The translations under genes and the position numbers were made by a program. From Bacillota bacterium (GTDB lineage Bacteria; Bacillota; Clostridia; Oscillospirales; Ethanoligenentaceae), in NCBI GenBank assembly GCA_023391535.1, contig JAEWAU010000077.1:1-15584 (forward strand): a stretch of DNA of 15,584 nucleotides. The letters run 5' to 3'. Shown piece by piece: positions 8,603 through 15,534 of the stretch. A model generated the notes under the pieces. That model was not told where the DNA came from. It saw only the letters and a list, made by a program, of their open reading frames with translations, and did no database searches. How positions within the stretch are numbered: the stretch's first letter is position 1; every line of letters starts with the position of its first letter.

Positions 8603-9085
8603 TCAGCCTTTCGCGAACAGCAGGGATGCCTGCAATACGCCGGCATACGCCGCCCAGAGCAGCAGCGGCAGCAGCAGGAAGCCGGCGGCGCGGTCCGCGC
8701 GGAAGAACCGCACGGTGGCCAGCAGCAGGTACAGCAGCAGGAGCAGCAGGCACACGAACGCGGCGAAATGCAGCCCCAGCGCGAAAAAGAGTACGCTCCA
8801 CAGCACCTGGAACGCGAGCTGCAGCAAAAACGCCGAAAGCGCCCCTTTCGCCCTTTCCCCGTCTTTACGCCACACGCGCCAGAAGGCGATGCCCGAAAGC
8901 AGGTAAAGCGCGCCCCAAACCGGCCCGAACGCCCACGCGGGCGGGGCGAACGCCGGCTTTTGCAGCATGGCGTAGATTTCCCCGGCGTTTTGCGACGCGA
9001 GCGCTCCGAGCGCCCCCGCTCCGAACGTCAGCAGCAGCGAGGCGACGAGCTTCAAAGCCGAGCTCCCTTTTGCCGAATCCGCCAT
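8603..9085 (-). CDS. tspO: TspO/MBR family tryptophan-rich sensory protein (translocator protein homolog).
   Basis: About 160 aa with five TM segments and Trp-rich conserved blocks (FAPPAWAFGPVWGALYLLSGIAFWRVW, LLLWAAYAG). Start ATG 9085 lies 7 nt after GGAGAAGGAG. Confidence 0.8.
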   Translation of the reverse strand: MADSAKGSSALKLVASLLLTFGAGALGALASQNAGEIYAMLQKPAFAPPAWAFGPVWGALYLLSGIAFWRVWRKDGERAKGALSAFLLQLAFQVLWSVLFFALGLHFAAFVCLLLLLLYLLLATVRFFRADRAAGFLLLPLLLWAAYAGVLQASLLFAKG

Positions 9086-9124
9086 ACGCACTCCTTCTCC
9101 CGGTTTTCACCGTACGTCCCATTC

Positions 9125-9163
9125 TATGCCCGCGCGCGCACCGTTATGCCCGGGCGCGCACCG
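9125..9163. repeat. Tandem direct repeat (2 x 19 nt, 20-bp period) in the tspO/mazF divergent region. Candidate operator.
   Basis: TATGCCCGCGCGCGCACCG / TATGCCCGGGCGCGCACCG, 17/19 identical. The minus strand of the first unit ends in the TAGAAT -10-like hexamer of the putative tspO promoter (9121-9126). Confidence 0.5.
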
Positions 9164-9349
9164 AACTCGGACAAAGTGAAAAGTTGTCCCACATCACACC
9201 GGCGGCGAATATACTGAACCAGAAGCGAAAATATTTTTCCCGCTTTGCCAATACCCGACAGACATCTGTTTTGAAATATATGGATATTCAAGGGAATTTC
9301 ATGTTTAAACGGCGCATTTTTGCGGCACAATAAAAATGGTTCCGGCAAT

Positions 9350-13499: not shown

Positions 13500-14009
13500 T
13501 CAACCGTCCTTATGCCGCACCATGAGGTAGATATAAAAGCCGATCGAGCCGAACATCACCAAAAGCGTTACCGGCAAAAACCATCCGCCGAGGCCGATAC
13601 GCGCGTTTCGCGCGACTTCCACGGTCTGGAACTGGATGTAGCTGAAGATCAGCACCACCACCGTTTTGAGTACGACGATCAGTTCGCGCCCGAGCCGGTA
13701 GAGCACGGCCGCGTTTTTTTCGTTGATTTCCACGGGGAAATTGAAGATTTTAGGAAAGCGTTCGAGCAGCGTGAGCCCGGCCGCCATAACGGCCATCAGA
13801 ATGGGCATCAGGAGCAGCGAGCCTTTTCCGCCCCAGGCATCCGCCGCGCCGGAAGCGCCGAAATGCGTAGGGATGCGCACGGGCAGGCTGCCCCACACCG
13901 CCGCGAGCACGGCCAAGTTGGCAAGCACCAGCACGGCGCACAGAGGCTGGAGTATCTTTTCGAGCAGCGACCATTCGGGGTTGCGATCGGGCCTGCCGGT
14001 TTCAGGCAT
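13500..14009 (-). CDS. DUF1648-domain membrane protein (SdpI/YfhL-like N-terminal domain family), about 169 aa.
   Basis: RIPTHFGASGAADAWGGKGS matches the DUF1648 signature (IPxHxNxxGxxDGxGSK), and four TM segments are predicted. Start chosen at MPETG (14009); the ORF track extends to 14261 across the yaaH promoter repeats, which is unlikely to be real. Confidence 0.6.
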   Translation of the reverse strand: MPETGRPDRNPEWSLLEKILQPLCAVLVLANLAVLAAVWGSLPVRIPTHFGASGAADAWGGKGSLLLMPILMAVMAAGLTLLERFPKIFNFPVEINEKNAAVLYRLGRELIVVLKTVVVLIFSYIQFQTVEVARNARIGLGGWFLPVTLLVMFGSIGFYIYLMVRHKDG

Positions 14010-14164
14010 AGGAAAAACCGTCCTTTCCAATTCCGCCGCATGGGAAACGCACGGATACATACGGTGCAAGCGGAAAACAGGAAAAGTATAGCACACGGGC
14101 GGGCAAACGGCAAGCGGCTGTGCCCTGCGGCCGCGGGGCGCTTTTTCCGCCGCCGCATATACTG

Positions 14165-14213
14165 ATACCGTGAACGTTACGCATACCGTGAACGACAATG
14201 CGTACCGTGAACG
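14165..14213 (+). repeat. Three tandem direct repeats of (A/G)TACCGTGAACG (period 18-19 bp), plus an overlapping palindrome, upstream of the yaaH-like gene.
   Basis: ATACCGTGAACG at 14165-14176 and 14183-14194; GTACCGTGAACG at 14202-14213; degenerate fourth unit TCAACG follows. GCGTACCG-TGAA-CGGTACGC palindrome at 14200-14219. A sigE/sigK-like CATACCGT lies inside unit 2. Confidence 0.6.
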
Positions 14214-14253
14214 GTACGCCGTCAACGCAGGACCGAAAAGGACAGTGATCGGT

Positions 14254-15534
14254 TTGGTCATCTATGTGGTACGGCCCGGGGACAGCGTCTATTCCATCGC
14301 CCGGGCACACGGCGTCACGCCCGAAAGCGTCATCCGCACCAACCGGCTCGCAAACCCCGCGCAGCTCGTCGTGGGGCAGGCGCTGCTGCTCCCCGTGCAG
14401 GGCTACGAATACACGGTGCGCAGCGGCGACACCGTCTATTCCATCGCGCGCGCCACAGGCGCGAGCCAGGCGTCCATTTTCCGGGCGAACCCGCAGATTC
14501 CCCAGAGCGGCGCGCTCTCGCCCGGGCAGGTGCTCATAATCCCCGCGCCGGAGCCGAAGCTCGGCACCATCGAGGTCAACGGCTACATATTCCCCGGCTC
14601 CAATGAGCAGGTGGTGCGCGACGCGCTGCCCTCCCTCACCTATCTGAGCGTTTTTTCCCACGAGGTTGCCGCGGACGGCACCCTCAGCACCGTGGACGAC
14701 GCCAAATGGATTGCCATGGCGCGTGCGGCGCGCGTGGCGCCCATCATGGTGGTGGCGAACATCCGCCCCTCGGGCGGCTTCTCCAGCGATATTGCCGGCG
14801 CCGTCCTCGCCACTCCCGAAACGCGAAGCAAGCTCATCGACATCATCGCGAGCACCATGCAGCGCAAGAACTACTACGGCGTGAACATGGACCTCGAGTA
14901 CATCCGGCCCGAGGACCGCGAAAATTACAACCAGTTCCTGCGCGAGCTTTCGGCGCGGCTGGGGCAGCTGGGCGCTCCGCTGCTCACCGCCGTGGCGCCC
15001 AAGGTCTCGGCCACGCAGCAGGGCCTTCTCTACGAGGCGCACGACTACCCCGTGCACGGCGAGGTGGCCAACCGCGTCATCCTCATGACCTACGAATGGG
15101 GCTACCTCGCGGGCCCGCCGCAAGCCGTGGCGCCGCTCGACCAGGTTCGCCGTGTGCTGGAATACGCCGTAACGGCCATTCCGCCCCAGAAGATCCTCAT
15201 GGGGGTGCCCAACTACGGGTACGACTGGACCCTTCCCTACCGGCGCGGGACGCTCGCCACCACGTTCTCGAACGTCGAAGCCGTAAACCGCGCCTTCCGC
15301 AACAACGCCGAGATCCAGTTCGACCAAACGGCCCAGTCTCCGTTTTTCAACTACACCGACGCCCAGGGCCGCCAGCATGTGGTGTGGTTCGAGGATGTGC
15401 GCTCGCTTCGGCAGAAATTCCTGCTCGTGCACGAGCTCGGCCTCGCAGGCATCAGTTACTGGACCATTGAGCGCCCCTTCCCACAGAACCTGGCGCTGTT
15501 AAACTCCATGTACGATGTGAAAAAGCTGCTGTAA
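14254..15534 (+). CDS. Spore peptidoglycan hydrolase of the YaaH/SleL type: two N-terminal LysM domains and a GH18 catalytic domain.
   Basis: LysM1 YVVRPGDSVYSIARAHGVTPESVIRTN; LysM2 YTVRSGDTVYSIARATGASQASIFRAN. GH18 active-site region YYGVNMDLEYIRPED resembles YaaH DGVNIDFE. Start uncertain: TTG 14254 lies 11 nt after AAAGGA; in-frame GTG 14245 and the track's GTG 14170 are less plausible. Confidence 0.8.
   Translation: MVIYVVRPGDSVYSIARAHGVTPESVIRTNRLANPAQLVVGQALLLPVQGYEYTVRSGDTVYSIARATGASQASIFRANPQIPQSGALSPGQVLIIPAPEPKLGTIEVNGYIFPGSNEQVVRDALPSLTYLSVFSHEVAADGTLSTVDDAKWIAMARAARVAPIMVVANIRPSGGFSSDIAGAVLATPETRSKLIDIIASTMQRKNYYGVNMDLEYIRPEDRENYNQFLRELSARLGQLGAPLLTAVAPKVSATQQGLLYEAHDYPVHGEVANRVILMTYEWGYLAGPPQAVAPLDQVRRVLEYAVTAIPPQKILMGVPNYGYDWTLPYRRGTLATTFSNVEAVNRAFRNNAEIQFDQTAQSPFFNYTDAQGRQHVVWFEDVRSLRQKFLLVHELGLAGISYWTIERPFPQNLALLNSMYDVKKLL

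Follow-up and report, generated by a model that had tools for sequence, protein, structure and literature searches.

A species-specific tandem expansion follows the −10 box in the leader of a YaaH/SleL-like hydrolase gene

We analyzed the control region of a gene whose product is, by its domains, a YaaH/SleL-like spore-cortex hydrolase, in a 15,584-nt window of DNA (positions 1 to 15,584 of contig JAEWAU010000077.1). Directly after the −10 element of this gene lies an array of three direct repeats, and we conclude with high confidence that it is a species-specific tandem expansion, from one unit to three, of the ~18 nt that open the leader. As to its consequences, we put at about one in two the probability that a slippage-type event expanded the leader and that the added sequence acts, if at all, at the level of the RNA. 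The kind of event is ordinary; the place at which it occurred is interesting. The features on which the argument turns are as follows, with the sister species being the close relative compared with the window species below.

14155–14164, + strand: −10 box GCATATACTG, with every position equal to the orthologue consensus and 100% conserved in the sister species
14156–14163, + strand: −10 octamer CATATACT, equal to the CATAnnnT consensus of orthologues
14165–14182, + strand: repeat unit 1, ATACCGTGAACG-TTACGC, overlapping the predicted start site; the putative ancestral unit
14166–14216, + strand: predicted long, imperfect hairpin formed by pairing between units 1 and 3, with unit 2 at its apex; an alternative to the unit-3 hairpin
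14169–14170, + strand: predicted transcription start, 6–7 nt past the octamer end at 14163
14183–14201, + strand: repeat unit 2, ATACCGTGAACG-ACAATGC = ATACCGTGAACGACAATGC, 19 nt; not in the sister species
14184–14220, + strand: 37-nt expansion (18 + 19 = two units), in the window species only; where the alignment gap falls among the repeats is arbitrary
14200–14219, + strand: inverted repeat with perfect 8-bp arms around copy 3, GCGTACCG-TGAA-CGGTACGC
14202–14219, + strand: repeat unit 3, GTACCGTGAACG-GTACGC
14215–14227, + strand: degenerate 'fourth unit', TACGCCGTCAACG
14237–14250, + strand: extended Shine-Dalgarno sequence AAAGGACAGTGATC, conserved as AAAGGAAAGTGAT in loci L002–L005 and L015
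14254–15534, + strand: YaaH/SleL-like gene (two LysM domains and GH18 by Pfam), with a TTG start

The 11-mer TACCGTGAACG occurs on the + strand exactly three times, at 14166, 14184 and 14203, with start-to-start distances of 18 and 19 nt, and Tandem Repeats Finder describes the interval 14165–14219 as 3.0 copies with a period of 18 (76% matches, score 66). Because one given 11-mer is expected ~0.007 times by chance in 15.6 kb (both strands), three exact copies inside 48 nt are not a chance occurrence, and because four independent assemblies (the window and loci L001, L006 and L007) carry the array without a difference, it is real rather than an assembly artefact. A preliminary description of this DNA had spoken of a triple 12-bp repeat; three copies at a spacing of 18–19 are indeed present, but the exact 12-mer ATACCGTGAACG occurs only twice, copy 3 beginning with G (14202–14213), and it is the 11-mer that is found thrice. 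The same description had placed the repeats at −90 to −40 from the TTG start codon, in agreement with the −89 to −41 that we measured from TTG 14254, and its palindrome around copy 3 and degenerate fourth unit are both present as described. At the position of this fourth unit the sister species reads CGCAGTCAACG, and the GTCAACG portion common to both species is, by this comparison, part of the ancestral leader.

The sister lineage, drawn from the protein cluster that contains the hydrolase at 90% identity, is represented by three samples (L008–L010) that are 85–93% identical to the window in DNA, and these were aligned by MAFFT with the four samples of the window species, giving seven loci. 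The control region of the sister species reads GCATATACTG-ATACCGTGAACG-TTCCGCA-GTCAACGCAGGACCGAAAAGGACAGTGATCGGTTTGG in all three samples, which is a single unit equal to unit 1 with one difference (TTCCGC for TTACGC). Outside the expansion 64 of 65 positions are identical, with the promoter, leader and Shine-Dalgarno sequence the same, and the flanks of the 37-nt indel are collinear, so that the −10 box and the start codon are separated by 53 nt in the sister species and by 90 nt in the window. Head-to-tail copies in one species, together with fewer copies and collinear flanks in a close relative, are the marks of a tandem duplication. More distant orthologues, at 60–69% amino-acid identity, have leaders of 24–27 nt and no repeats, with a faint resemblance to the core in two of them (ATACCCGGCAAAAC in L005 and GATACGTCAATAC in L002). 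By parsimony, the array was probably gained in the window lineage. We saw no copy-number polymorphism within the window species, in which the three units are identical in four of four samples that are themselves 99.8–99.98% identical overall.

The expansion sits in a strongly conserved block. Apart from the 37-nt indel, only one substitution separates the two species over the 160 aligned nt from 14155 to 14351, and the block takes in the first 33 codons without a synonymous change; elsewhere they diverge by 7–15% (~7% in the rest of the gene and 12–15% in the flanks). Either constraint acting on the 5′ part of the mRNA or recent recombination across this tract could account for such a block. 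Small duplications near the yaaH −10 box are also found in other loci: L023 (~1437–1470) has TGGCATATA twice, 25 nt apart, and L073 and L089 (~1448–1470) have both AATATACT and CAATCGA twice. The promoter–leader region of yaaH seems prone to slippage.

The position of the array relative to the promoter follows from the orthologues. In the 110 nt preceding the start codon of 75 orthologous yaaH/sleL-like loci, CATAnnnT was found on the coding strand in 58 loci, compared with 14 for the opposite strand and 9.9 for shuffles, and these 58 upstream regions gave the extended consensus g-CATAtacT-g, at a median of 30.5 nt (range 14–102) from the start codon. In the GC-rich relatives L044, L047 and L059 the box stands isolated within GC-rich sequence. 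This conservation supports the earlier view of the region as the control region of a sigmaE/sigmaK-type sporulation promoter, and by orthology GCATATACTG is the −10 box of such a mother-cell promoter. The first repeat begins 1 nt past it.

In Clostridioides difficile, sigmaE and sigmaK share this −10 type (for example, CATATAAT), with −35 elements of ATA for sigmaE and AC for sigmaK (PMC3789822). Because the C. difficile promoter strings (Table S7) stop 6 nt beyond the −10 octamer, we would place the transcription start at ~14169–14170, inside unit 1. Relative to this predicted start the array extends from about −5 to +50, with units 2 and 3 expected at +14 to +44 of the transcript. No −35 (ATA ~14 nt, or AC ~16–18 nt, before the octamer) was found in the window or in the sister species, which read GGCGC and GCGCT, respectively, at positions −19 to −15; among the orthologues, 54% have A at −19 and 43% have C at −18. 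The choice between sigmaE and sigmaK cannot be told from the promoter in the window. In Bacillus subtilis, yaaH is listed under sigE and spoIIID (PMC10653849), and a citing paper (PMC2530871) attributes the same to Kodama 1999. A scan for sigma70-type promoters on the + strand around the array found none. Exactly where the −35 of the hydrolase gene is expected lies a terminator-like, GC-rich hairpin, GTGCCCTGCGGCCGCGGGGCGC followed by TTTTT (14120–14146, +), and at this place the sister species has another GC palindrome, GGCGCGC-TTTG-GCGCGCC, inside a 13-nt direct repeat. The hairpin could insulate the promoter from antisense read-through of the divergent DUF1648 gene, or it could be part of the promoter architecture.

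The preliminary description had assigned these elements differently: it took the repeats as typical of cooperative binding by a response regulator or sporulation factor, with CATACCGT in unit 2 as a −10 candidate and GCATATA upstream of it. The model that this implies, of upstream activator sites with GCATATA as the −35, we consider very improbable. CATACCGT does fit CATAnnnT and has G on both flanks, as in the consensus, and GCATATA does fit the sigmaE −35 pattern KMATWWW. However, GCATATA lies in GCATATACTG, which is itself the conserved −10 and the exact consensus of the orthologues, and the variable positions of CATACCGT are C, C and G, which occur in only 5%, 4% and 2% of orthologues. The two CATA motifs are 26 nt apart, compared with 20 nt in a sigmaE-type promoter of the same genome, GCATAAC-N14-CATAGAAT at 9121–9163 (−), which precedes the TspO_MBR gene (8603–9085, −). 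Moreover, CATACCGT is a product of the duplication, being generated at the junction of units 1 and 2 (…CGC|ATACC…), and the sister species, which lacks this second CATA, has nevertheless kept the gene and its leader.

The spacing and position of the repeats also disagree with cooperative binding by a response regulator or sporulation factor. The copies had been said to recur every two helical turns, but a period of 18–19 bp (mean 18.5) is about 1.75 turns at 10.5 bp per turn, which leaves neighbouring copies ~90 degrees out of helical phase; in-phase sites would be spaced by about 10.5 or 21 bp. The repeats lie downstream of the −10, and not upstream of or overlapping the −35 as activation sites would, and because the array spans about −5 to +50, activator or response-regulator sites are unlikely. 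Nor is the array conserved in orthologous promoters, with one unit in the sister species and zero at 60–69% identity.

We also compared the region with the sites of known regulators and looked for other copies. The consensus strings of SpoIIID, GerE and Spo0A are WWRRACARNY, RWWTRGGYNNYY and TGNCGAA, respectively. In these forms none matches either strand of 14100–14260, where the sole GGACA, at 14240, is in the Shine-Dalgarno sequence, and by eye none of cre, Rex, LexA, CtsR and parS fits the region. The preliminary description had proposed looking for the array elsewhere in the genome. We found no further copy of TACCGTGAACG with up to one mismatch in the window or in the 25.5 kb of DNA surveyed in total from the window species, which takes in four other sporulation-type promoters (cotF-like, ssp, dacB-like and TspO). 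In a wider scan for TACCGTGAACG-N5-9-TACCGTGAACG in 185,579 species genomes, a set that does not include the source genome, the only matches were four in other phyla (Acidobacteria, Terriglobales, Bacteroidales and Planctomycetota), and a metagenome scan for CATATACTGATACCGTGAACG, in a collection that likewise does not include the source genome, returned 0 matches.

We rejected the four distant arrays as relatives of the one studied here, as they have no likeness to it outside the core and have unrelated neighbour genes, and we judged the shared 11-mer to be chance because tandem arrays of 16–20 bp are many. Three arrays that contain TACCGTGAACG stand in metagenome-assembled genomes (MAGs): ~7 × 18 nt in a Terriglobales MAG (L012, 3980–4110), 4 × 20 nt, with one further copy inverted, in a Bacteroidales MAG (L013, 5934–6050) and 2.5 × 20 nt in a Planctomycetota MAG (L014, 7087–7117); that they share TACCGTGAACG is probably a coincidence. 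Within the 25.5 kb, the pattern TACSGTGAA occurs in the three units and once more, in the TspO leader just past the CATAGAAT box, where GTACGGTGAAAACCGG agrees with CGTACCGTGAA at 10 of 11 positions (post hoc p ~0.01). This look-alike was rejected as a second site, the sister species reading GTAGGGCGGAAACCGG there, with three changes and the loss of a small hairpin.

The six unit-to-unit differences all fall outside the 11-nt core TACCGTGAACG. The hypergeometric p for this distribution between core and spacer is ~0.004 if the differences are six independent events and 0.07 if they are three, which at face value suggests that the core is under constraint. Among the units, 6 positions of 54 nt are variable, a much higher rate than the one change in 160 nt that separates the flanks of the two species. 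The differences are therefore not clock-like drift, and on this comparison either the insertion process or selection produced them. ATGCGTA (14198–14204) is the exact reverse complement of TACGCAT (14178–14184), and one template switch could have given the tail of unit 2 and the G that starts unit 3 together. With most of the differences within reach of a single such event, we downgraded the core-versus-spacer statistic as proof of selection.

Three identical cores between differing spacers are also what an operator array might look like, and an unlikely but live alternative holds that the core over +1 is the ancestral site of a mother-cell repressor, now present three times (about −5 to +45). 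A SpoIIID-, GerR- or GerE-like protein could then shut the gene off after its pulse, with three sites strengthening the shut-off. In favor of such a repressor, the promoter–leader block is near-invariant (one substitution in 160 nt, compared with 7–15% elsewhere), and the perfect palindrome of unit 3 is of a type that dimeric regulators bind. In B. subtilis, SpoIIID or GerR turns down almost half of the sigmaE regulon (PMC517825), and yaaH is listed under spoIIID (PMC10653849). However, the 25.5 kb holds no further copy of the core, even at the cotF-like, ssp, dacB-like and TspO promoters, and the lone look-alike, in the TspO leader, is not kept in the sister species. The 18–19-bp period would leave adjacent sites ~90 degrees out of phase, the SpoIIID, GerE and Spo0A strings are unmatched, and the core is not conserved at orthologues of 60–69% identity. 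The invariant block also spans 33 codons, so that its conservation is not core-specific, and a template switch that covers most of the spacer differences weakens the statistic on which this alternative draws.

More doubtful still is the idea that the core TACCGTGAACG, which overlaps the start site, is recognized by a mother-cell factor not yet described in this group of GC-rich Clostridia, whether a DNA-binding repressor or an RNA-binding protein. If it were, the sister pair would show a multi-site operator arising from a single ancestral site through tandem duplication, with the cores staying identical and the spacers being remodelled into a palindrome. The feature would have wider significance only if the core were the binding site of a new regulator.

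As RNA, the unit-3 hairpin (14200–14219) has a folding energy of −13.5 kcal/mol (z = −4.06, with 0 of 200 shuffles as stable), and for the 55-nt array as a whole a single long hairpin of −21.7 kcal/mol (z = −3.77) is predicted, compared with −0.9 kcal/mol and no stable structure for the one-unit leader of the sister species. Three identical units would reach only −13.3 kcal/mol. All of the unit differences increase self-complementarity, the changes private to unit 3 (A1→G and T13→G) each mending a mismatch in the 8-bp palindrome, and when five substitutions and one insertion were placed at random, only 0.7–1.9% of trials matched the −21.7 kcal/mol of the actual array. When the whole leader is folded, the array hairpin is apart from a second hairpin, in the loop of which the Shine-Dalgarno sequence is unpaired. 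A scan against Rfam found no family, the best E values of 0.33–7 being far under the gathering scores.

In the sequence of events that we favor, replication slippage is the most likely origin of the array, and quasi-palindrome template switching may have come after it. Transcription would start inside unit 1, at ~14169–14170, which would make units 2 and 3 the 5′ end of the mRNA. The expansion would have lengthened the leader from 53 to 90 nt (−10 to start codon) and added a 5′-proximal stem-loop, which would be one of two alternatives, the 8-bp unit-3 hairpin (−13.5 kcal/mol) or the ~50-nt hairpin of units 1 and 3 (−21.7 kcal/mol), and this stem-loop would leave the Shine-Dalgarno sequence unaffected. 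Any effect on the mother-cell mRNA would be on the stability of its 5′ end or on its amount, and would not come about via cooperative activator binding. With low confidence, we suggest that what the array contributes is the extra hairpin and 37 nt, with an effect most likely on mRNA stability or amount.

Several points weigh against this reading. The two species could also differ by a loss from three units to one in the sister species rather than by a gain. In the absence of a recognizable −35, the use of CATATACT as a promoter element is taken solely from orthology, and the start at 14169–14170 is a predicted rather than a mapped one. For an effect on mRNA stability, the argument comes from what is generally known of 5′ stem-loops in Firmicutes. 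The 11-nt core is the same in all three units, with all six unit differences elsewhere, which fits a protein operator more simply than it does a hairpin in which the core of unit 2 is unpaired. The high z-scores of the array alone are partly due to a repeating quasi-palindromic unit, and the whole leader is no more stable than shuffles (z = −1.25). Finally, the element is present in two lineages only and the array in one, too few for covariation to bear on the predicted fold.

In another unlikely alternative, the array is a slippage product fixed as a selectively neutral indel without measurable effect. Its hairpin would be a by-product of a repeated quasi-palindromic unit and of the mutational bias of template switching. 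Orthologue leaders range from 14 to 102 nt, small duplications near the −10 are found in L023 and L073/L089 too, the sister species differ in copy number without other change, and the whole-leader fold is not significant; the four samples, at 99.8–99.98% identity, are so similar that fixation is little informative. On the other side, no part of the locus is more conserved than the 200 nt that took the insertion, the differences between units are not random with respect to pairing (p ~0.01–0.02), and a structure of −21.7 kcal/mol only a few nucleotides from the 5′ end is unlikely to spare mRNA decay or translation. We prefer an expansion of the leader that acts, if at all, through the RNA.

If this leader-expansion reading is right, its main worth is that it corrects the earlier picture: the repeats belong to the leader instead of being upstream activator sites, and the conserved box CATATACT takes their place as the actual promoter element. 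The pair of sister species, one with one unit and the other with three, is in addition a natural experiment that could reveal how a small 5′ duplication alters the expression of a sporulation mRNA.

The repeats are not part of the protein. TTG 14254, already proposed as the start codon, is supported by orthologues that begin at the same residue, and gives a protein of 426 amino acids. The first two units each contain an in-frame GTG codon (14170 and 14188), a further one at 14245 shortly precedes the TTG at 14254, and gene callers have placed the N terminus differently across assemblies (448 and 437 amino acids from 14188; 429 from 14245). These divergent calls (426/429, 437 and 448 amino acids) arise because in-frame GTGs sit in the repeat cores. 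We ruled out the repeats as a coding N-terminal extension: an indel of 37 nt is not divisible by 3 and breaks the reading frame, which makes the sequence before the TTG non-coding, and the orthologues start at the TTG position. The N-terminal extensions with which both flanking open reading frames cross the array, 14170–15534 (+) and 13500–14261 (−), are spurious, as had been recognized before.

The insertion has also made a short upstream open reading frame, from ATG 14198 to TGA 14248 (16 codons, MRTVNGTPSTQDRKGQ), and coupling of its translation to that of the hydrolase is the least probable of the alternatives that we considered. The frame is present, with its ATG within the divergent tail of unit 2 and its stop inside the Shine-Dalgarno sequence, 5 nt before TTG 14254. 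Against a role for it, the ATG is preceded by no Shine-Dalgarno sequence, only by GUGA 8 nt upstream, and is buried in the predicted hairpin, and the frame is not in the sister species and has no conservation evidence. A direct repeat, AGGACCG/AGGACAG, with copies 10 bp apart (14229–14245, +), overlaps the Shine-Dalgarno sequence of the hydrolase gene in both species, and its AGGACAG copy holds the only GGACA of the region.

Other features of the neighbourhood have a sporulation character. The hydrolase gene is accompanied by genes for a cotF-like protein, an alpha/beta SASP, an S11 carboxypeptidase and TspO, in a locus with 61.5% G+C, and is divergent from the gene upstream of it.

13500–14009, − strand: DUF1648 membrane protein gene

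The DUF1648 gene has a sigma70-like promoter, TTGCCG-17-TGCTATACT, at 14113–14085. Directly 3′ of the hydrolase gene, the window species has a GFO_IDH_MocA oxidoreductase gene (L001, 11659–12639), which the sister species lacks (L008, 3855–4141).

The two GCATA elements of the TspO promoter, 20 nt apart from CATA to CATA, lie in a 20-nt tandem repeat (Tandem Repeats Finder, 9125–9163, 2.0 copies, 94%). TspO orthologues beside yaaH in L002 and L005 also have CATATATT boxes, and by these boxes TspO looks like a sporulation gene of the mother cell in this clade. Between pemK and TspO, ATGTGGGACAACTTTTCAC (9176–9194, −) has been kept where the surrounding sequence has diverged; it is also found in L095, L096, L097 and L098 and partly in L002 and L005. 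The GGACAA within it resembles the SpoIIID core.

Several known systems resemble the hydrolase control region in part. The closest are the mother-cell promoters of cortex-lytic enzyme genes, such as B. subtilis yaaH/sleL (sigmaE-dependent, with SpoIIID) and C. difficile sleC (sigmaK), with the C. difficile consensus −10 CATATAAT. The orthologues belong to the same gene family (two LysM domains and GH18), 58 of 75 of them have a CATAnnnT −10 in the place equivalent to that of the window, and the start is expected 6–7 nt downstream of it. Unlike described mother-cell promoters, those of the window and sister species have no ATA or AC −35 and a GC-rich hairpin in its place, and the repeats of the window have no counterpart among them. 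Operators of response regulators have a period of 10–11 bp (OmpR/PhoB type) or 9-bp repeats ~21 bp apart (LytTR type). The window likewise has three or four direct repeats with an 11–12-nt core near a promoter, but with an 18–19-bp period that is out of helical phase, a position downstream of the −10, one copy in the sister species and no second site in 25.5 kb.

With variable-number tandem repeats and phase-variable repeats, the array shares head-to-tail copies, a copy number that differs between close relatives and collinear flanks, but it has only three imperfect copies (76%), is invariant in four samples and is not a switch. Quasi-palindrome template switching is a known mechanism of mutagenesis, and in keeping with it the complementarity of ATGCGTA and TACGCAT explains the tail of unit 2 and the first base of unit 3 jointly, whereas one event leaves the T13→G of unit 3 and the ACA in the tail of unit 2 unexplained; for this array the mechanism would be read back from its product. 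In the ermC and aprE leaders, 5′-terminal stem-loops protect Firmicutes mRNA from 5′-end-dependent decay by RNase J1/Y. In contrast to these stabilizers, the hairpin of the window comes from a recent tandem repeat, is not in the sister species and has no conserved stabilizer sequence; like them, it is a stable hairpin near the predicted 5′ end, apart from the Shine-Dalgarno sequence.

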